DNA of 46,431 nt from a phage (GCA_021146965.1 GCA_021146965.1_4847.1); one strand, 5' to 3'; positions 1,515 to 45,585 are shown, counted from the first letter of the stretch. Notes: generated by a model not told the origin, from the letters alone. Numbers and translations: made by a program.

Positions 1515-1540
1515 AAGCCGCATGAAGCGGCTTTTAATTT
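1515..1540 (+). terminator. rho-independent terminator
   Basis: hairpin AAGCCGC-atga-GCGGCTT followed by T-rich run directly after stop of 1137..1511. Confidence 0.6.
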
Positions 1541-1616
1541 GGTGGACACGGACGAATTTGAACCTTCAATCAGCCGATTATTAGTCGGTTGCTTTAACCA
1601 ATTAAGCTACGCGTCC
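1540..1616 (-). tRNA. tRNA-like gene (77 nt, encoded CCA; anticodon loop CUAAUAA, anticodon reads AAU, identity uncertain)
   Basis: minus-strand sequence GGACGCG-TA-GCTT-AATTGGTTA-AAGC-A-ACCGA-CTAATAA-TCGGC-TGATT-GAAGG-TTCAAAT-TCGTC-CGTGTCC-A-CCA folds as cloverleaf: 7-bp acceptor stem (one G-U), 4-bp D stem with GG in D loop, T8/A9, U33, T-loop TTCAAAT; one mismatch each in anticodon and T stems. Confidence 0.45.
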
Positions 1617-2137
1617 ATAAGTGCTGGTTTAAGCATTGCCAGCGTGCTTTCTTAACATCCAGCCCCGTAACCCATACATACCCCTACATATGATTGCGAT
1701 AATGCTGGATATTAAGTGTTGTGGTGGCCGGTGCTGATCTCCGGCATAAGGCGCTTATTCGGCGGCGTCGAGCTTGCTTATTCGCTTGAGCCATCCTCGT
1801 GAGTCAGCCACGTCCCACTGCGCATCAGCCTGCGCATTCACCACAACGGAAAGAGCACTGATGCGCTCACTTGGGACTCCTTAGCCATAACCCACGGGCT
1901 TCTGGTACACCAATGCTCTTACCTGTTGTGTTCCCTGACTTATTAATCACACCTCAGGGACGCAGTGCGCCGAATTTGTTTACAAGGAATCGGAAGACCT
2001 TGCTGACTTACAGGCTATTACGTCGCCATCAGAACAACATCATCGTTTGCATTTATCTTTGTGGTCAGTTTCTAAAAAGTCCGCAAAGTCGCTCACGAAA
2101 ACTATCTGAAATACAATCTACACCACAAAATAATCGC

Positions 2138-2158
2138 TGTCAACACCTGTGATATAAT
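2138..2158 (+). promoter_or_regulatory. putative sigma70 promoter with extended -10 (TGaTATAAT)
   Basis: TGTCAACAC at 2138-2146, TGA+TATAAT at 2150-2158, 37 nt upstream of major tail gene ATG; same TGTCAACAC...TGaTATAAT arrangement recurs at 3531-3556. Confidence 0.45.
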
Positions 2159-2916: not shown

Positions 2917-2945
2917 AAAAGCCCCGAAAGGGGCTTTGTTTTATT
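2917..2945. terminator. rho-independent terminator (likely bidirectional)
   Basis: AAAAGCCCC-gaaa-GGGGCTTT hairpin followed by GTTTTATT; lies between convergent genes 2195..2914(+) and 2941..3141(-). Confidence 0.65.
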
Positions 2946-3141
2946 CTTGTGGTGGTTCTGGCAGATTGGCCCAGTGGGTAGCTGGAATTCCGTGACAGCA
3001 GTCCAATTCACTAACAAATATCTTGCTGCCAATATTATCGACAGCTTTACATGCCGCAGTTCTAACAACACCGCGAAATGCTGTAAGAACCATCGTTCCT
3101 TCTTCTGGCATTCGCTCACTACACTTAATCCACTGGCTCAT
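2941..3141 (-). CDS. DUF551-like protein
   Basis: 66-aa ORF MSQWIKCSERMPEEG...IPATHWANLPEPPQE matches the DUF551 pattern recalled from phage proteins; translationally coupled (ATGA) to upstream ORF. Confidence 0.5.
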   Translation of the reverse strand: MSQWIKCSERMPEEGTMVLTAFRGVVRTAACKAVDNIGSKIFVSELDCCHGIPATHWANLPEPPQE

Positions 3142-3281
3142 ATCACCTTGTCCTCATCAAAAATCACGCCAATAACGCGAAGTAAGTCTTTCGCCATGCG
3201 TTCCGCTTCCTCGTAGTCGTAACCTGCATCAACATACAAATCAGTGTAGAAAATCAGGTCAGCTTTTGTTTGTTCGTTCAT
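3138..3281 (-). CDS. small hypothetical protein (47 aa incl. stop)
   Basis: ORF MNEQTKADLIFYTDLYVDAGYDYEEAERMAKDLLRVIGVIFDEDKVI linking two flanking genes by ATGA overlaps at both ends; below ORF-track size cut-off. Confidence 0.4.
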   Translation of the reverse strand: MNEQTKADLIFYTDLYVDAGYDYEEAERMAKDLLRVIGVIFDEDKVI

Positions 3282-3472
3282 TTCTTGTCGCCACTGTTAA
3301 CTAATGCCCAAACAAGTGCCGCAACCCATCCAATAAAGCTCCACCCGACAAGAATATTCAGTACACAGATTGCTGTCGTGTTTGTGTGCTTGCGTTGCAA
3401 AGCCACAAATGATGGAAGAAGATAAACAAATATAACCAATCCAGCAAAAAGCAACAAAATAACAACATCCAT
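3278..3472 (-). CDS. superinfection-immunity-like small membrane protein
   Basis: 64-aa ORF with two hydrophobic helices; motif YLLPSFVALQRKHTNTTAICVLNILVGWSFIGWVAALVWAL resembles the Imm_superinfect family signature (LP..IA..R.H.N..aI...N...GWt.iGWv.AL.WA) from memory. Confidence 0.5.
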   Translation of the reverse strand: MDVVILLLFAGLVIFVYLLPSFVALQRKHTNTTAICVLNILVGWSFIGWVAALVWALVNSGDKK

Positions 3473-3530
3473 AACTCACCTCATTCATATCTCGTTTCGA
3501 TGATTTGAATCTACATCACCACCTCGCAGG

Positions 3531-3556
3531 TGTCAACACTACTGAGATGATATAAT
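3531..3556 (+). promoter_or_regulatory. putative sigma70 promoter with extended -10 (TGaTATAAT)
   Basis: TGTCAACAC 3531-3539 and TGA+TATAAT 3548-3556, ~30 nt upstream of 3586 ATG. Confidence 0.45.
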
Positions 3557-16100: not shown

Positions 16101-16526
16101 TTAATCTACGTCATCCAGCAAGCCAAAATAGAAAAGCGTGGCTTTTTTTAATTCATCAAGCCCATAAGCTATGGCAGCATAATGACCAAGCCTGCACATC
16201 TCTGTTAGCACTGCTGATTGATCCTTGCTCACCCTGCTTTTGCTTTTATCGCGGCGCTTTGCTTCAATCATCCCACAACTGTGATTTACCCCCGGAGTCA
16301 TTATCACATTGTCGCCTATACCAGCCTTAACCCCCATCTTCTGGCGCTTCAGCACAAACTGCACCCTGCTTGATGTGCCAGTTTCGTTGGGTACATGAAA
16401 CCACAGAACATCAGGGAAGCGGTGTTGCATCCATGTTCCATAACCCATCTGGTCAGTCTCCTCTTTTGGGCATTCTCCTCGATAACCGCTATCAAATACC
16501 CATATACCGCTATCAAGCTGCTTCAC
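16101..16526 (-). CDS. VRR-NUC domain nuclease
   Basis: 141 aa; GMIEAKRRDK...SKDQSAVLTEMCRLGHYAAIAYGLDEL fits VRR-NUC (D..EAK then Q..w...G) pattern; adjacent to SF2 helicase as commonly seen; GTG start with AAGGA RBS. Confidence 0.6.
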   Translation of the reverse strand: MKQLDSGIWVFDSGYRGECPKEETDQMGYGTWMQHRFPDVLWFHVPNETGTSSRVQFVLKRQKMGVKAGIGDNVIMTPGVNHSCGMIEAKRRDKSKSRVSKDQSAVLTEMCRLGHYAAIAYGLDELKKATLFYFGLLDDVD

Positions 16527-16536
16527 TTTGTTATCC

Positions 16537-18435
16537 TTAAAATTCTTTTCGGTGGATTATGTCGCGACCTTTATCATTAATGCGATGCGTGATGCGTTTT
16601 GGCGCTTTAATCAACCCCGCATACATCATGAACTGCTTGGCGTTCTGGCATTTCAATATTTTCCCAGCCATTGACTTATCATCAAGGTGTGGGAATACAG
16701 CCTTTGCCTTGAACATGTTTTTCATGTGAGTTGCGCCGTCATAAGGGTAGAAAACTTCATTAGCCCAGCCTTCTTTGCCATCACAACGGTTAATCCAGTA
16801 GCGATATAAAATCCCCTCTCCGTCCTTCGTTAGTTGAACCTTGAAATCCATAACATCAGCCCACTCGTTATCTGTATAAGCACGCTCATTCAGTGCCGAA
16901 TTAGGGTCGCGCAACACGTGATCGCAATGTCTGCAATAGCGCGCAGTGGGGTCGTTTTTAGTGCCGCAACCATCATCAAAAATCCGGATTCCGTGCTTAT
17001 CAAAACCGCAACGGATGTAACTGAAAAATTCTTCGCAGCGACCATCTGGAGATAGCGGGTCTTTCCCTATGCATCGACGCGCATATGGGCTGTTCATTGT
17101 TCCACATGTATGACACGGAACTTGTTCGCCACTGCGTTTTGAACGTTGCGCTTCAGCCTCTTCCAGAATCGGGTCTTCATACAGCTGACCAAGCTCAAAC
17201 ATCGTGCCAGAGAAATCAAGAACCAGATGGTCTTCTTTATGATACCCGGCATCAATTTGCTCTTTCTTCAGTAGGCGCATTCCGCGACCAAGAAGCTGGA
17301 CAAGGAGAGTTAGCGACATTATTTTTCGCAATATGCAGCTCGTATCCCATAACGGTATATTTACGCCAGTGGTAAGGGCGGCTATCTGGAATGTGAATTT
17401 TTTACGCCCGGTGTATGCATCTTTTAGAGCCTTCCTTCTGGCTTTTGACCCCATATCTTCTGTAACTATTGAATAACTTCCTTCGGGTAGGTATTTTGCC
17501 GCCTCCTGACAATGTTTTTTACCAGCACATGTAATCAGTACGCCGTTTCTGTTTTTAGTCAACTCCATAACCTTGAGCATGATTTTCTGCGTCAACGTAC
17601 CTTGCTCAAGAATTTCTTTCTGCATCTGCTTGAGCTGCTCGGCGGTAAAGTCCTGAGTACCATCAACATCTGAACCATGAAAATCCGAAAGGTCATAATG
17701 CAGACTATCAACATCATGAAGACCAAAAATTGTTGGAACAAGAAAACCGTTTTCAACCATGTACTTGGTGTCTATGTTGATAATCTCTTTCTTCCAGAAA
17801 GCGCCTTTTATTGATGTAGTTCCGCGAAACGGTGAGCCTGTATAACCTATTATTCTCAACTCATGGCCATGCTTATCTTTACACCTTTTCATTAGCTCAT
17901 TAATTATCACTGCATACTGCGTATCACCATTATTAACAACATCAATGTCATTAACCATATGATTTTCATCGATCAGCAGGAATCTTGGGCAAAAGTCAGA
18001 GAGCGCACCTTTTGCAATAACATTCCCATGCTCATCTTTTTTATCAAACAAAGCATTTACAACAGTACCCTCAGAACCACAGATTATTGGGTACGTAGAA
18101 CTTTTCCTACCCAACGAAGCACTGAATAGCGAGTTTCTAACACCAAGCAACCATAGCTCTTCCGCATCTTGCTCCACTATTTCGCCCTGTCTTGATAAAA
18201 TCATCCCTGAATAGCCCATCTCCTGAAAACGCTTTGCTATCATGGCAATCATCAGTGACTTTCCGCTACCGACACTTGCTGTTACATAGCTTGGGCCAAC
18301 ATAATGACGAATCACATCGCCAGTTAACTTATATATCAACCACTGATAGGGTCTTGGCTCGATATCACCAGTATCCAGATAAGATTTCAGCAGATTAATA
18401 TCAATCTCTGAAATCATTTTGTCGATTTTATGCAT
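16537..18435 (-). CDS. SF2 DNA helicase (DEAD/DEAH-type) with C-terminal zinc-ribbon region
   Basis: motif I ASVGSGKSLMIAMIA, motif II LLIDENH, Cys-rich C-terminal segment (CHTCG...CRHCDH); start at ATG 18435. Confidence 0.8.
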   Translation of the reverse strand: MHKIDKMISEIDINLLKSYLDTGDIEPRPYQWLIYKLTGDVIRHYVGPSYVTASVGSGKSLMIAMIAKRFQEMGYSGMILSRQGEIVEQDAEELWLLGVRNSLFSASLGRKSSTYPIICGSEGTVVNALFDKKDEHGNVIAKGALSDFCPRFLLIDENHMVNDIDVVNNGDTQYAVIINELMKRCKDKHGHELRIIGYTGSPFRGTTSIKGAFWKKEIINIDTKYMVENGFLVPTIFGLHDVDSLHYDLSDFHGSDVDGTQDFTAEQLKQMQKEILEQGTLTQKIMLKVMELTKNRNGVLITCAGKKHCQEAAKYLPEGSYSIVTEDMGSKARRKALKDAYTGRKKFTFQIAALTTGVNIPLWDTSCILRKIMSLTLLVQLLGRGMRLLKKEQIDAGYHKEDHLVLDFSGTMFELGQLYEDPILEEAEAQRSKRSGEQVPCHTCGTMNSPYARRCIGKDPLSPDGRCEEFFSYIRCGFDKHGIRIFDDGCGTKNDPTARYCRHCDHVLRDPNSALNERAYTDNEWADVMDFKVQLTKDGEGILYRYWINRCDGKEGWANEVFYPYDGATHMKNMFKAKAVFPHLDDKSMAGKILKCQNAKQFMMYAGLIKAPKRITHRINDKGRDIIHRKEF

Positions 18436-18698
18436 TACCAAATCCTCGCACCAAGACGTTCAATTGTTTGTTTCTTTGTTTCATCATCTATTCCGCTATA
18501 AAAATACATATAACTAAGATTCCATAGATAATCTTCTGGTCGCTCATCGGCAAACAAATCATCCCACTCAAAAATCCATTCTCCAGTTCTCTGTCTTCTG
18601 TATATGGTTAGCCATGTATTGCTTCGTGGCGGGTATCCGAAGGAAACAGGGATTGGCTTGCCATGAAAAATCCTCTTAAAAATGCTATCAAGGAACAC
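18435..18698 (-). CDS. hypothetical protein
   Basis: 87-aa ORF, GTG start with upstream AGGA; first gene of leftward transcript from 18699-18773 intergenic region. Confidence 0.4.
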   Translation of the reverse strand: MFLDSIFKRIFHGKPIPVSFGYPPRSNTWLTIYRRQRTGEWIFEWDDLFADERPEDYLWNLSYMYFYSGIDDETKKQTIERLGARIW

Positions 18699-18713: not shown

Positions 18714-18742
18714 TTGATGTTTCTACGTCAGTTAGCTTATAC
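18714..18742 (+). promoter_or_regulatory. putative sigma70 promoter for primase gene
   Basis: TTGATG (18714-18719) - 17 nt - TTATAC (18737-18742); spacer contains TCTACGTCA motif copy. Confidence 0.4.
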
Positions 18743-18773
18743 TCAATCTACACCAACAATCAAGGGTAAATTT

Positions 18774-22362: not shown

Positions 22363-22671
22363 CACGTGGGTAGCGTGGGGCAGCCGTGGGGAACATCACC
22401 TTCCCCACGAAGTTTCACTCTAAGTATATGTAATATAATATAATTATTATTATTTGGGTTAATGGGTAATATTATTATTCATATTATAGATAGTAATTAA
22501 CATAATATTAACAAATGGATTATTTGAATATATTTATAAGGGGATGGGTATGAAATCTTCCCCTTTTTACCCACGAAAAATAAAAACATTAAAATCAATT
22601 ATTTACGATGAAAAACGTGGGGCAACTGACCTTCCCCACGACCTGCCCCACGGGTAAAAATTTACCCCACG
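22363..22671. repeat. iteron-like CGTGGGG/CCCCACG heptamer clusters flanking a ~200-bp AT-rich core (putative origin of replication / divergent control region)
   Basis: left cluster: CGTGGG(G) at 22363-22370, 22374-22380, 22384-22391 plus inverted CCCCACG 22403-22409; right cluster: CGTGGGG 22616-22622 plus inverted CCCCACG 22634-22640, 22646-22652, 22665-22671; core 22411-22610 is very AT-rich. Confidence 0.6.
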
Positions 22672-22694
22672 AGCACGTTTTTAACGCATTCATG

Positions 22695-22723
22695 TTGACG
22701 TAGAATCACAACTGATGTAGATT
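22695..22723 (+). promoter_or_regulatory. putative rightward early promoter
   Basis: TTGACG (22695-22700) - 17 nt - TAGATT (22718-22723), 30 nt upstream of first rightward ORF. Confidence 0.55.
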
Positions 22724-22753: not shown

Positions 22754-22900
22754 ATGAGAATCAAAGACCGTGAAGAATTTGAAGATGCACAGACTATGGC
22801 GCGCATTGCAGTTAACCGCACAAACAACAGCATTCCTGCAGAAGCATTCTGGAACGCAGCGATGCAGGCTTTAATCTCAGCGTATGGACTCAGCAAATGA
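22754..22900 (+). CDS. small hypothetical protein (48 aa)
   Basis: ATG with GAGGGTG RBS; first of a string of ATGA-coupled small early ORFs. Confidence 0.4.
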   Translation: MRIKDREEFEDAQTMARIAVNRTNNSIPAEAFWNAAMQALISAYGLSK

Positions 22901-27492: not shown

Positions 27493-27524
27493 TTGACCAA
27501 TCTACACCGAGCGCATAGTATAAT
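27493..27524 (+). promoter_or_regulatory. putative promoter for accessory cassette
   Basis: TTGACC (27493-27498) - 17 nt - TAGTAT (27516-27521), overlapping TATAAT 27519-27524; contains CAATCTACACC motif copy. Confidence 0.45.
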
Positions 27525-27552
27525 CTACATCAGGCTTATCGGAGATATCACT

Positions 27553-27759
27553 ATGCGCAGCTATGCAGGGTTCACACAGGAGGAGAAAGAGCAGGTTTAT
27601 TCACTGGCTCGGGCTGGTGTGCCAGATGAGGTGATTTGCCGTCGGTATGACATCGACGAGGATTTCCTGCTGCGCGTTATTGATGATGTCTTCGTTAACC
27701 TGCAAGAGAAGCGCGGATATAAAGGTATCTGCTGCAAGAATGATTTTTTGAGAGGGTGA
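27553..27759 (+). CDS. hypothetical protein
   Basis: ATG with GGAGA RBS; internal start of track ORF 27493..27759. Confidence 0.4.
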   Translation: MRSYAGFTQEEKEQVYSLARAGVPDEVICRRYDIDEDFLLRVIDDVFVNLQEKRGYKGICCKNDFLRG

Positions 27760-32267: not shown

Positions 32268-32353
32268 CACTTGATGTAGATACTATGCACCACCAACCAA
32301 TCTACGTCAACACCATTGTGATAGAATTAATCATTATTTGAACTGGAGGCAGA
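32268..32353. promoter_or_regulatory. divergent promoter/operator region with inverted motif pair
   Basis: TTGATGTAGAT (32271-32281) and inverted CAATCTACGTCAACA (32298-32312) between divergent operons; GGAGG RBS at 32345-32349. Confidence 0.45.
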
Positions 32354-34773: not shown

Positions 34774-35260
34774 TGTGATGCATTCTCCTGAATTCTTTTA
34801 TTTTTGCTTCTGCTTCTCTTATGTCGGAAAAGTAACCAACTGTGAATCTTTTGCCATTTACTCCAACTCTTGCATGCCACTTGTTGTGCGATGAACTCCA
34901 GTTAACCCCCTTGATACCGCTAGTGTTGTTTTTGTTCATTGCTTTGTTGTGGCTATTCTCAAATTTGCTGGCCTCCCTTAAATTGCACGCCCTGTTGTCA
35001 TTGCGAATGCCATTAATGTGGTCAATCATTTCACTTGCTGGCGCGCCATGAATGCATATCCATGCCAATCTGTGAGCAAGAAAAGCCCTACCGCAAAGAA
35101 TTATTTGCACATATCCATCTGGCTTTAAGTAGCCAGCCACACTCCCTTTTTCTGCAATCCTATTCCTTGTCTTTAGCCATTTAAATTCCCCAGTTAGTGG
35201 ATTGTAGTAAAGGTAACTCAATATAAACTCCCTACTCGGCTCATCTCTCCTATGCCTCAT
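34748..35260 (-). CDS. HNH homing endonuclease with AP2 domain (paralog 3 of 4)
   Basis: IDHINGIRNDNRACNLREA plus AP2-like SGIKGVNWSSSHNKWHARVGVNGKRFTVGYF. Confidence 0.8.
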   Translation of the reverse strand: MRHRRDEPSREFILSYLYYNPLTGEFKWLKTRNRIAEKGSVAGYLKPDGYVQIILCGRAFLAHRLAWICIHGAPASEMIDHINGIRNDNRACNLREASKFENSHNKAMNKNNTSGIKGVNWSSSHNKWHARVGVNGKRFTVGYFSDIREAEAKIKEFRRMHHNEFTNHGR

Positions 35261-35463
35261 TTCTCATCCTCTTTCATTGTCACCCTATTATTCTCGTCAA
35301 CACTGAAGTTGGCCCGAATCAAATCATACATATCTTCCTTAGGCATATCAGCCAGCGCCACATAGCAACGGGCGAAGTAGCGAACATCACGGAGTGTCAG
35401 CGGTTGTCGCTTCTCCACAATGCTGGTGATAATGTCCATCGGCTCGCGTCGTGGTCTTGGCAT
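35257..35463 (-). CDS. hypothetical protein
   Basis: 68-aa ORF, ATGA-coupled to HNH gene downstream. Confidence 0.4.
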   Translation of the reverse strand: MPRPRREPMDIITSIVEKRQPLTLRDVRYFARCYVALADMPKEDMYDLIRANFSVDENNRVTMKEDEK

Positions 35464-35490: not shown

Positions 35491-35535
35491 TTGACGTTTC
35501 TACATCATTTAGTCAATACTTGTTGACGTAGATTG
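35491..35535. promoter_or_regulatory. divergent promoter/operator region with tandem TTGACG... motif copies
   Basis: TTGACGTTTCTACATCA (35491-35507) and TGTTGACGTAGATTG (35521-35535) between divergent genes 35257..35463(-) and 35563..35760(+). Confidence 0.45.
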
Positions 35536-35562
35536 TACCACAACGGAAAAGGTGATGTGGAA

Positions 35563-36542: not shown

Positions 36543-36756
36543 GAAATTACTTGAATGCCCGTTTTGTGGTTGTGATGACGTAAGTGTTATTGATGACGGC
36601 GAATGGTTGCACGTTGAGTGCGGAGATTGTTTTTGCCGCACTGACTCGTATTGCTGCGCATCCACGGCAATGAAGAAATGGAACACAAGAGGTGGACACC
36701 TCTACACTTCCGACGACTTCAATCAGGCAGCAGAGGAGCGTGATTATGGACTATAA
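36520..36756 (+). CDS. Lar-family restriction alleviation protein (zinc ribbon)
   Basis: LECPFCGCDD...HVECGDCFCRT...AMKKWNTR pattern matches the Lar restriction-alleviation family as recalled; start 36520 or 36532. Confidence 0.5.
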   Translation: MTLLMNDEKLLECPFCGCDDVSVIDDGEWLHVECGDCFCRTDSYCCASTAMKKWNTRGGHLYTSDDFNQAAEERDYGL

Positions 36757-37234
36757 ATCACAAATCATGCGCGTGATTATGAATCACCCCGGAGCAACGC
36801 GCGCATACATTGAGAAGCATTGCGGAGGTAAGCATTCAAGCACCACAACGCATCGCTTACATGAGATGCTTGCTCTTGGATTCATTCGTCGCGAGAAGTC
36901 AGTGATTCGCGGCGGCAAGTGGCAGTATAAATATTTCATCTCTGATGATGCAGCCGGTATTGATGATGCTATTAAGTGCCATTTGCTTGATAACGCTGGC
37001 GCGGAAGTGAAAGAAATCAGTACCACCACTGGCATTGATTATCGCATCGTGAAAAGCCGCATCCGCATTATGTTTCATAACGGTGATGTGACGCGAAGCT
37101 ATGACCACCACAAGAAGCTGTGGCGTTATTCATGGAAGGAGAAGGAAGTCAATGTAAGCAATCTATTTAATTCACTTCTTCGCAGCGTAAGGGGTCAGCA
37201 TGGGAAAAGCCAAACGCAAGAAGCAAGAGTATGA
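36746..37234 (+). CDS. hypothetical protein with two tandem winged-helix-like repeats
   Basis: internal ATG with GAGGAG RBS; two similar ~55-aa repeats; C-terminal end uncertain. Confidence 0.4.
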   Translation: MDYKSQIMRVIMNHPGATRAYIEKHCGGKHSSTTTHRLHEMLALGFIRREKSVIRGGKWQYKYFISDDAAGIDDAIKCHLLDNAGAEVKEISTTTGIDYRIVKSRIRIMFHNGDVTRSYDHHKKLWRYSWKEKEVNVSNLFNSLLRSVRGQHGKSQTQEARV

Positions 37235-40453: not shown

Positions 40454-41526
40454 TGGAAAAGATTATTTTTACCAAAGACTTGGTAGCCAACTCCGCAGTG
40501 GTGGCTGACCAGTGGAAACATCTCACCATCGACCGCAAGGTGTTCTGCAATGCAGAAGCTGAACTGGCGAAAACATACGGTGTTAACGCCACCGCGCTGG
40601 TAACGAAAGATTACTGGCGCGACGTGGATAACGTCACCACCCGTGTTTTCCGCAACGAAGCTGGCCAGGACATGATGGCTGACCTGATGGGTATCGCGGC
40701 AAACATTAACATTGGTAAGACTGTGGCAATCAGCCGCATTGCTTCCGATGCTGGCAAGGTAGTCCGCACTCTGTCTGGTCAGGAGCCGGAAGACTTGGAT
40801 AAAACTCGCTACGATTACACTGGCGACGTGATTCCAATCTTCAAAACTGGCTACAGCCGCGAATGGCGCGAACTGCTGGGTATGCAGTCTGAAGGTTTTG
40901 ACCCCCTGCTGGACGATCAGGCTAACGTCACCTTTAACCTACGTTCCGACATGGCGCAGTATCTGCTGACCGGCGACCAGACTCTGAACGTGAACGGCGT
41001 TTACACTGGCTACGGTATCACCAACCACCCGAACACCATTCAGGTCAACCTGAACGTTTCCGATGGCGGCCTGAATATCGACCTGCAAACCGCAACGCCA
41101 GATGAAATCGTGAAATTCTTCAATCAGGATTTCCAGGCTATTCTGGATGCGCAGAACGTATTTGAGCAGGTGACTCTGTGGGTTTCCCCGGCAGTGCGTC
41201 GCAGTTTCATGCGTCCGTATTCTAATGCGGCTGGCTTCAAAGGCGGCACGGTTGAGCAGTACATCACGCAGTTCGGTAATGGTCGCATTGGTAAGATTGG
41301 CACCAACTTCCTGCTGACTGGCAACCATTTCGTTGGTTACGTTCGCAACGACATGTACATCCGTCCGCGTGTTGCTCAGCCTGTCTCCACCTATGCGGCA
41401 GCTCGCACCAACCCGCACGATAACTTTAACTTCCTCGTATGGTCTGCTTTCGGTCTGCAGATTCGCAAGGATGCCGCTGGAAAAAGCCGCGTCTTTAATG
41501 GCTATGGTAGCCAGAAAGCTAAATAA
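40453..41526 (+). CDS. major capsid protein (HK97-fold)
   Basis: 357-aa ORF in canonical position after protease/scaffold and decoration genes, followed by strong terminator; size and composition typical. Confidence 0.65.
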
Positions 41527-44317: not shown

Positions 44318-45127
44318 TCACATCTTCTCCAGAATTGCCATAACCTCGTGAATGTCAGCAACAGGAATCTGAATAAATTCCTCATCCTCTGCCACCACAT
44401 GACCAGCAGGGAGAATTACATGGTCAGCTGGCTTCAGTAACTCAATCAGGCGGTCTACTGGCTTAATCTTTTTCGACTTCAGCACTTTGGCTGTGACCTT
44501 ATCCTTGCCTTGCGCCTTCGCTTCTTCGACCGCTTCGTCGATAACTTTTACCGCATCATCTCCATGTTCGCGCGTTACCGCTACGGCATTTGCATAGCTG
44601 ATCTGTCCGGCACTGATTCGCGCTTTTACTTCCGCAGGCACATCACCCAACGACAGGTGCATTTGCACGTCAGATACTGAGCGGCCTACCTTCTTGGCGA
44701 TTTCCTCGTTTGTCCAGCCAAAACCTTTCAGACGCGTGTAAGCCTTTGCGCGTTCAAACGGGTCAAGTTGCTTGCCCTGACTTGATGACACCATGAATGC
44801 GATTTTGTCAGCCTCGTCGCCAGTAAAATCCTTACACTCAATGCGAACGATTGGTGCGCCGCGCTCAATGGCTCGCAATGCGCCGAGGTAGCGATGCTGC
44901 CCATCAAGAATGCGGATACCTTTATCGTCAGGAATAACTGTTAATGCTGGCAATGGCTGACCTGACTCCCAGCACTGCGCGAAATATTCCACATGCTGCT
45001 CATCTGCTTCACGGATGTTGTATCCCGGCTCCAGATAGATTTGCTCTACTGGCACGAGGTAGGTTTTGTTAACAGCGATACCGTTACGCGTTTCTTTGTC
45101 TGAATAGATTTTGCTTAGTGTTTTCAT
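44318..45127 (-). CDS. ParB-like protein (ParB/Srx N-terminal domain plus HTH)
   Basis: ILDGQHRYLGALRAIERGAPIVRI matches ParB/sulfiredoxin-fold core; central TNEEIAKKVGRSVSDVQMHLSL resembles ParB HTH. Confidence 0.6.
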   Translation of the reverse strand: MKTLSKIYSDKETRNGIAVNKTYLVPVEQIYLEPGYNIREADEQHVEYFAQCWESGQPLPALTVIPDDKGIRILDGQHRYLGALRAIERGAPIVRIECKDFTGDEADKIAFMVSSSQGKQLDPFERAKAYTRLKGFGWTNEEIAKKVGRSVSDVQMHLSLGDVPAEVKARISAGQISYANAVAVTREHGDDAVKVIDEAVEEAKAQGKDKVTAKVLKSKKIKPVDRLIELLKPADHVILPAGHVVAEDEEFIQIPVADIHEVMAILEKM

Positions 45128-45492: not shown

Positions 45493-45554
45493 TTGTTTCT
45501 ACGTCACTAACTATAAACGCACCACCAATCTACGTCAACAGGAATATGCTAAAA
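45493..45554. promoter_or_regulatory. divergent promoter/operator region with two motif copies
   Basis: TTTCTACGTCA (45497-45507) and CAATCTACGTCAACA (45526-45540); on minus strand these give TTGACG - 17 nt - TATAGT; TAAAAT at 45549-45554 for rightward genes. Confidence 0.45.
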
Positions 45555-45585
45555 TCATGCTAATCAAACAACAGGAGATTTAAAC

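Follow-up and report, generated by a model that had tools for sequence, protein, structure and literature searches.

The immunity repressor C1 of the temperate phage P1 is a protein of 283 amino acids that acts through dispersed, asymmetric operators of 17 bp. Proteins of the P2 Cox, 186 Apl and lambda Xis type are small, consist of a helix-turn-helix plus a wing, and repress by binding arrays of asymmetric boxes of about 9 bp that lie over promoters. Lambda Cro and phi29 p4 bind as dimers to palindromic or pseudopalindromic operators at one or two loci. The MotA box of T4 is an asymmetric 9-bp element at a fixed position (about -30), where it replaces the -35 element and activates. ParB and KorB proteins bind palindromes, and the operators of RK2 KorA and KorB are palindromic.

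We have analysed a stretch of 46,431 bp, called the window below, which is the complete, circularly permuted genome of a Skatevirus/Saltrevirus-like siphophage. The phage appears to be virulent. A motif of 9-12 bases, (T)TGAYGTAGA(TT), recurs inside about ten promoter regions of this genome, and the recurrence is real and far beyond chance. The reading that we prefer, with a probability of roughly 0.55, is that the motif is the operator of a phage-encoded protein, set in sigma-70 promoters, through which the non-structural operons would be turned down.

By analogy of behaviour, such a system would most resemble P1 C1 and the Cox/Apl/Xis class, and would resemble Cro and p4 in its logic. As for C1, there are more than ten short, asymmetric sites spread over the genome, which overlap promoters, are in some cases paired in either arrangement and extend over many operons. 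Unlike P1, the phage looks virulent, the site has 9-12 bp, the candidate binder has 68 amino acids and there is no sequence relationship. This candidate is a predicted winged helix, as in the Cox/Apl/Xis class, but it has no match to the Pfam Xis or HTH_17 families at E <= 1, there is no integrase or recombination context, and the sites are dispersed genome-wide. The logic shared with Cro and p4 would be that of an early, small DNA-binding protein lowering strong early promoters that adjoin -35-less ones; here, however, there are about 15 asymmetric sites, whose geometry to the late promoters is not constant. T4 MotA also uses an asymmetric box in many promoters of a virulent phage, and five of our sites span about -34..-25 of a predicted promoter, near the usual place of that box, yet register and orientation vary and a consensus -35 is kept. 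Among the proteins scanned there was no match to the MotA or AsiA families. The RK2 systems differ in that our site is asymmetric and that the ParB-like gene of the window is absent from SB28, a related phage that carries the motif.

The motif and the phages that carry it

The gene map of the window was built from codon usage and agrees with deposited annotations. Rightward blocks hold the head, tail, lysis and packaging genes, leftward blocks the recombination and replication genes together with many small proteins, and there are two rightward blocks of small genes, starting at 22754 and 35563. Intergenic sequence makes up 7.1% of the window. The annotations of six related genomes list no RNA polymerase, and the open reading frames of more than 700 amino acids in the window all encode tail proteins.

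Escherichia phage vB_Eco_ZCEC08 shares 97% identity with the window over the test region. Other relatives are the Salmonella phages seszw (Skatevirus), 64795_sal3 (Saltrevirus) and SB28 (Macdonaldcampvirus), Shigella phage Sf11 and, more distantly, the Klebsiella phages ZX4 and MK54. The large terminase of MK54 is 61% identical to that of the window, and most of its proteins are 50-65% identical.

The original prediction, made from the sequence of the window, listed 15 copies of the motif, and each range does contain the sequence given for it. It also proposed a comparison with shuffled sequence. TGAYGTAGA has 12 exact matches in the window against 0.44 expected, and the best of 100 dinucleotide-preserving shuffles reached 3; with up to one mismatch, TGACGTAGA has 19 matches against 6.3 expected. 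In an unbiased ranking of all 7- to 10-mers, scored against a third-order Markov expectation, the top places at lengths 8, 9 and 10 went to TGACGTAGA and to words contained in it or containing it. The 15 sites are those matched by the pattern [TC]G[AG][CT]GTAGA, in which position 1 may also be C and position 3 may be either purine.

The reported location of the copies between genes holds for 14 of the 15 sites, the remaining one (16105) overlapping the last codons of the upstream gene. The reported pairing was recovered as well: direct pairs lie at 22696/22713, 18747/18722, 45529/45498 and 27524/27501, and inverted pairs at 32272/32301 and 35499/35524. Spacing inside the pairs (17, 23, 25, 25, 29 and 31 nt) is too variable for a cooperative geometry to be proposed. 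Of the asymmetric core, TGRYGTAGA, ACGT alone is self-complementary, and this part is lost in the TGATG and TGGTG variants. No copy that we collected lacks G5 or G8, and sites that are not predicted to be a -10 can do without the 3' TT (TAGAAAC, TAGATAC). Relatives keep the motif, with 12-15 copies per genome in six independently fetched genomes including MK54, and it does not differ between Escherichia, Salmonella, Shigella and Klebsiella phages.

To our knowledge, no alternative sigma-factor consensus and no described site of an enterobacterial regulator matches the motif. A full-text literature search found no report of it in a phage, and a search on the promoters of Jerseyvirinae, Guernseyvirinae and Skatevirus found nothing on it. 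The 'phage promoters' given by PHIRE for the Kagunavirus phage Golestan (e.g. TTATAGTATGCTATTAACTT) are unlike the motif, and the consensus reported for fBC-Eco01, tgAATAGTa-ccTATTat-T, differs from it. An exact 14-mer scan of IMG/VR returned members of the group and chance matches. Three unrelated contigs (L045, L047 and L104) carry a low-GC element with the palindrome ATCTACRTCAA-N6-TTGAYGTAGAT, which contains the same half-site; they have no protein similarity to the window, and the palindrome is probably coincidental.

Other over-represented words in the window, namely CAGTGGTGTA, GGTCGCATTG and CACTGGCG, lie inside genes and were set aside as unrelated to the motif. The five copies of GGTCGCATTG (7435, 32952, 39060, 41281 and 43948) are all intragenic and on the coding strand, and CACTGGCG occurs 13 times against 3.2 expected. 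The abundance of these two words may be a codon or peptide coincidence.

Predicted promoters at the sites

Promoters were predicted by consensus and intersected with the copies, which had been aligned together with their flanks. The features are as follows.

2117..2125, minus strand: site TGGTGTAGA(TTG), with TAGATT as the -10 of a predicted leftward TTGACA-17-TAGATT promoter (2143..2115)
2150..2158, plus strand: extended -10 TGaTATAAT of the major tail gene, back-to-back with the leftward motif promoter
3510..3518, minus strand: site TGATGTAGA(TTC), with TAGATT as the -10 of a predicted leftward TTGACA-17-TAGATT promoter (3536..3508), upstream of the small-gene operon 3472..2941
16105..16113, minus strand: site TGACGTAGA(TTA), located where two genes meet within the leftward replication/recombination operon
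18722..18755, minus strand: direct pair of TGGTGTAGATTG (18747) and TGACGTAGAAAC (18722), upstream of the leftward operon starting at 18698
22696..22721, plus strand: direct pair, 17 nt apart, with copy 1 as the predicted -35 (TTGACG) and copy 2 as the predicted -10 (TAGATT)
27501..27532, minus strand: direct pair of CGGTGTAGATTGG and TGATGTAGATTA, inverted with respect to a predicted rightward TTGACC-17-TAGTAT promoter (27493-27521)
32272..32309, both strands: inverted pair in a divergent region, with TTGACGTAGATTGG at 32301(-) as the -35 of a predicted leftward TTGACG-17-CATAGT promoter
35499..35532, both strands: inverted pair between divergent genes starting at 35463 (leftward) and 35563 (rightward), the locus at which the original prediction was made
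45498..45537, minus strand: direct pair, with TTGACGTAGATTGG at 45529 as the -35 of a predicted leftward TTGACG-17-TATAGT promoter (45538..45510)

Several of these sites touch more than one predicted promoter element. The pair at 18722..18755 overlaps the spacer and +1 of a predicted rightward primase promoter (TTGATG-18-TATACT), and the pair at 27501..27532, upstream of gene 27553, covers the spacer and +1 of TTGACC-17-TAGTAT. In the divergent region, 32272(+) is inverted across the +1 of the leftward TTGACG-17-CATAGT promoter, and the pair 32272/32301 also covers -33..-25 of a rightward extended -10 lysis promoter, TGaTAGAAT (32319-32327). Sites 35499/35524 overlap the spacer and +1 of a rightward TTGACG-18-AATACT promoter, the +1 of a leftward TGgTACAAT (35541..35532) and the spacer of a leftward TTGACT...CAAGAT. 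The copy TGACGTAGAAAC at 45498 spans -3..+6 of promoter 45538..45510, whose operon includes the ParB-like gene, and together 45498 and 45529 cover -33..-25 of a rightward extended -10, TGcTAAAAT (45547-45555). The pair at 22696..22721 makes up a single predicted rightward promoter for the small-gene operon starting at 22754; the TTGACG-17-TAGATT reported there is present at 22695-22723. Site 16105 has no good -35 in the window, and relatives have a tandem GATGTAGATT GATGTAGATT at this junction.

The copies can be sorted by the part of the promoter that they occupy. At 2117, 3510 and 22713 the motif supplies a -10, TAGATT, 17 nt downstream of TTGACA or TTGACG, and at 45529, 32301 and 22696 it supplies a -35, TTGACG, 17 nt upstream of TATAGT, CATAGT or TAGATT. 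Forward copies lie across the +1 of the leftward promoter at 45498 (TGACGTAGAAAC) and of the rightward TTGACG-18-AATACT at 35524 (TGACGTAGATTG). Inverted copies lie across +1 and abut the -10 at 27524 (TAGTATAATCTACATCA), 32272 (CATAGTATCTACATCA), 18747 (TATACTCAATCTACACCA) and 35524 (TACAATCTACGTCAA), and copies at 35499, 27501 and 18722 lie in spacers. The registers are thus -17..-9, -34..-26, about -3..+6 and -28..-20, in both orientations. Nine predicted -35/-10 promoters overlap sites, as consensus matches with a TTGACA-like hexamer, a spacer of 16-18 nt and TAnnnT. Overall, 14 of the 15 sites fall within -35..+6 of a predicted promoter, as do 39% of intergenic bases, a comparison that is partly circular in that the motif supplies some of the hexamers. 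The site-bearing promoters are near consensus (TTGACA or TTGACG, 17 nt, TAGATT or TATAGT) and should, for that reason, need no activator.

The structural and lysis operons have extended -10 elements (TGnTAnAAT) without a -35. Such elements lie at 2150-2158, 3548-3556, 32319-32327 and 45547-45555, and others precede the capsid gene (38559) and gene 42433. Four of the extended -10 elements either stand back-to-back with a leftward motif promoter or overlap one, a layout also found in the Klebsiella clade. This suggests two classes of promoter, predicted from sequence, and competition between them. The laboratory mutant seszw_100S (L002), near 40688, has a 17-bp deletion relative to the window between the 32272 and 32301 copies, which takes out the spacer of a leftward TTGACG...TATAGT promoter.

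Can host sigma-70 alone account for the motif? The copies could be a family of duplicated early promoters with no dedicated factor, alike through common descent and selection for promoter strength. Promoters of the TTGACA/TTGACG-17-TAGATT and TTGACG-17-TATAGT type are indeed predicted at 2143, 3536, 22695, 32310 and 45538, and a leader sequence common to two promoters suggests duplication. Such an account does not explain G5, G8 and the neighbouring half-site, which are invariant yet not read by sigma-70: TGRYG at -17..-13 and TAGATTG at -29..-23 are kept across clades whose terminases are 61% identical. Nor does it explain copies at +1, in spacers or in inverted orientation, or the TAGAAAC sites, which are without the T at -7 required by a -10. 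The flips of orientation and the concerted change of T to C at position 6 that we describe below in relatives also speak against it, and we regard it as unlikely.

The original prediction had left a choice between a family of early promoters and the binding sites of a phage regulator overlapping promoters. The second is better supported. The bare promoter family fails, although halves of the motif do serve as predicted hexamers: as had been proposed for TTGACG, the predicted promoters use the TTGACG half as a -35, and the TAGATT half as a -10.

A different possibility is a directional promoter element, recognised jointly by host RNA polymerase and a phage factor in the manner of the T4 MotA box or a gp55-type extended -10, which would define a phage-specific temporal class. 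Twelve of the 15 copies are 24-80 nt upstream of a start codon in their own orientation, and all direct pairs but 27501/27524, as well as the single sites 3510 and 16105, face non-structural genes. Genes acquired by SB28 have upstream copies without a convincing -35, and the protein encoded at 27553 has a predicted fold like sigma region 4. Against this, the register relative to the -10 is not fixed, the pair 27501/27524 is directed into the terminase gene at its 3' end and has no gene downstream of it in the window, and the conserved consensus -35, at exactly 17 nt, would be superfluous for a -35-independent class. Neither an activator box at a fixed position nor a factor-specific promoter is compatible with the variable register and orientation. 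We therefore give this possibility little credence. The finding that 11 of the 15 sites share the direction of the non-structural operon that they precede is predicted by such an element too.

In the operator reading, which we favour, the site would be short and asymmetric (T-G-R-Y-G-T-A-G-A, usually followed by TT(G)) and embedded in the promoter core, from -35 to about +6, of non-structural and mostly leftward operons. A phage-encoded, sequence-specific protein would bind each copy independently and block host RNA polymerase. Occupancy would then turn down the non-structural operons, the regulator's own included, and where divergent promoters overlap or stand back-to-back the balance would shift in favour of the tail, lysis and head-tail genes, whose extended -10 promoters have no -35. 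The site resembles a -35 hexamer fused to a -10 and so can double as either element, hence the 'TTGACG-17-TAGATT' look. With near-consensus promoters, and with sites placed on the -35, on the -10 or across +1, the simplest effect of occupancy would be repression. That the motif is bound, that the effect is repression rather than activation, when in infection it would act and which protein would bind are points that we infer from sequence comparison.

Lineage variants and candidate binding proteins

With gene 35257..35463 as the query we fetched 33 relatives, which gave 30 distinct aligned upstream regions. L012 and L035 have flips in the divergent region, of the proximal copy at its own position and of the distal copy, respectively, and both keep the operons on either side. 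Both copies point away from the 35257 homologue in L012 and towards it in L035, which a directional element would not be expected to allow with both operons retained. The flips are consistent with operator function that would be independent of orientation.

Sequence changes in the motif are concerted within lineages. In the sister lineage L162/L163, orthologous sites have jointly changed to TGAYGCAGATAT, with T replaced by C at position 6 of several sites together, and there are 3 copies of GACGCAGATAT per 20 kb where 0.01-0.02 would be expected. Remoter variants are also enriched: CRGTAGATT in L167, TTAGTAGAT in L168 and GGTAGATT in L169. These variant sites, all in metagenomic contigs, are intergenic except for one per lineage, and copies are always present upstream of the homologue of the 68-amino-acid winged-helix gene. 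A concerted change of sites per lineage is what is expected of a cis-element that co-evolves with a trans-factor encoded in the same genome.

The same variation bears on whether the phages exploit a conserved protein of their Enterobacteriaceae hosts that binds the motif. The identity of the motif across Escherichia, Salmonella, Shigella and Klebsiella phages, most of whose proteins are 50-65% identical, would fit a host protein. The concerted lineage variants of related phages (GCAGATAT, CRGTAGATT, TTAGTAGAT and GGTAGATT) would not, and we know of no enterobacterial regulator with such a site. We consider a host binder very improbable.

All proteins of the window were screened by presence or absence in six genomes, which left a few small universal proteins, of which two have predicted DNA-binding folds. 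These two head the following list of candidates.

35257..35463, minus strand: predicted winged-helix protein of 68 amino acids, with an N-terminal arm MPRPRR and an invariant stretch RQPLxLRDVRYFA
27553..27759, plus strand: protein of 68 amino acids with a predicted sigma-region-4/LuxR-type helix-turn-helix fold, the second candidate
36746..37234, plus strand: tandem winged-helix, MarR-like protein of 162 amino acids, the candidate named in the original prediction
44318..45127, minus strand: ParB/KorB-like protein with matches to the ParB HTH and KorB domains and a Spo0J alignment over residues 40-202

The winged-helix gene 35257..35463 is the first gene downstream of the 35499/35524 pair, and sites are directly upstream of it in every lineage examined. 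Its LRDVRY(F/Y)A(R/H)C stretch is exact in the four lineages that keep TGAYGTAGA and different in the four others. Conservation extends to most of the third helix (MY..IR.NF), and a GTAGAT core is kept in three of the four lineages without TGAYGTAGA; the third helix is rather acidic for a recognition helix. In the second candidate the putative recognition helix is acidic as well, and its gene is the first one after the 27501/27524 pair. The family of this protein has an upstream site in each lineage where it is found, and also varies. Pfam gave no match at E <= 1 for either protein, and the sole PHROG assignment of the winged-helix candidate is to a family without known function. For the small conserved proteins in general, neither database yielded a functional family.

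Given the operator reading, we tentatively name the 35257..35463 protein as the most likely binder, at somewhat less than even odds. Between the two we provisionally rank the winged-helix protein first and the sigma-4-like protein second, a choice based on about six lineages. The covariation has the same basis of about six lineages, among which every protein diverges.

It is also conceivable, though very unlikely, that both proteins take part, the 27553 protein reading the TTGAYG half and the 35257 protein the GTAGAT half, so that jointly they would compete with sigma-70. If so, host polymerase would be handed to the -35-less extended -10 structural promoters, and a virulent siphophage would switch promoter class without a new sigma factor or an AsiA-like protein.

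The original prediction had named the 36746..37234 protein as a candidate regulator. Its two winged-helix-like halves would suit an asymmetric site, it matches a PHROG 'MarR family' at 4.6e-58, and its gene lies in the operon downstream of site 35524. The gene has, however, been dispensed with too often for this role. It is truncated in 64795_sal3, where about 23 homologous residues are left, and in L026, where 14% is matched, and it is missing from several motif-bearing lineages; no homologue was found in the fetched stretches of L162/L163 or L167-L169. The viable laboratory mutant seszw_280S has the homologue deleted and keeps 13 sites. Gene block 3-10 of seszw can be deleted as a whole (PMC9825161). 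In the Klebsiella clade the protein is 36-37% identical and its first recognition helix is not conserved, yet the motif there is identical. The match to Pfam MarR_2 (19.2 against a cut-off of 27) is below threshold. We regard this protein as an extremely unlikely binder. An operator of the MarR family was likewise rejected: the MarR_2 match is below threshold, the site is non-palindromic and the protein is dispensable and often absent.

The 44318..45127 protein, judged by its sequence matches, is a genuine ParB homologue and might be thought to act as a global repressor in the style of KorB. Besides its matches to the ParB HTH and KorB domains, it is strongly conserved (98-99% identity within the clade and 81% in the Klebsiella clade), its own operon has two sites, and it lies next to the 35257 homologue, in divergent orientation, in L168 and L169. 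However, SB28 has only a 44-amino-acid remnant of it and keeps 15 sites, including new ones before acquired genes, and in two unrelated phages with homologues that are 43-48% identical the motif is not enriched. The site of a ParB-parS or KorB-OB system would be a palindrome of 13-16 bp, and the core of our motif is asymmetric. A role for this protein as the binder is thus very improbable.

Possible uses of the motif and other features of the window

Members of Skatevirus, Saltrevirus and Macdonaldcampvirus, and their Klebsiella and Escherichia relatives, have been widely isolated for phage therapy and used for genome reduction. Our literature search found no transcriptional programme or transcriptome for this group of phages. 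The motif maps about ten promoter regions that would be regulated, and shortlists two candidate regulators among dozens of 'hypothetical' proteins. Natural variants of specificity, such as GTAGA versus GCAGA and others, make a protein-DNA code testable. The motif is apparently undescribed; a repressor-operator regulon is a familiar principle, and the new details are the motif family, the promoter-mimicking site and the lineage-specific variants.

SB28 (L008, NC_054638) has copies at 18155, 30002 and 30023, upstream of genes that are absent from the window. These acquired genes are an antirepressor-like gene and a gene for a homing endonuclease of 556 amino acids, neither with a convincing -35. 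It seems that a module of motif and promoter travels with inserted genes or is acquired by them. Because genes acquired by SB28 have the motif, it may offer an apparently portable and compact regulated promoter module for engineering.

Two further features of the window deserve mention. The first is at 22365-22680, in a gap of 466 bp adjoining the leftward helicase operon, where about ten copies of CGTGGGG/CCCCACG flank a very AT-rich stretch of about 200 bp. The region includes two 25-nt units of CGTGGGGnnnnnnACCTTCCCCACG, at 22385-22409 and 22616-22640, and from its sequence looks like a replication origin with iterons.

The second is a stretch of about 500 nt without open reading frames, which the predicted promoter 2143..2115 faces and which ends at tRNA-Ile(AAT) (1540-1616, minus strand). 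A tRNA was the sole match in an Rfam scan. The first 240-330 nt of the stretch below 2143 are 74-79% conserved in phages of the Klebsiella clade, and the whole, 1540-2143, may be a non-coding RNA or a tRNA precursor.
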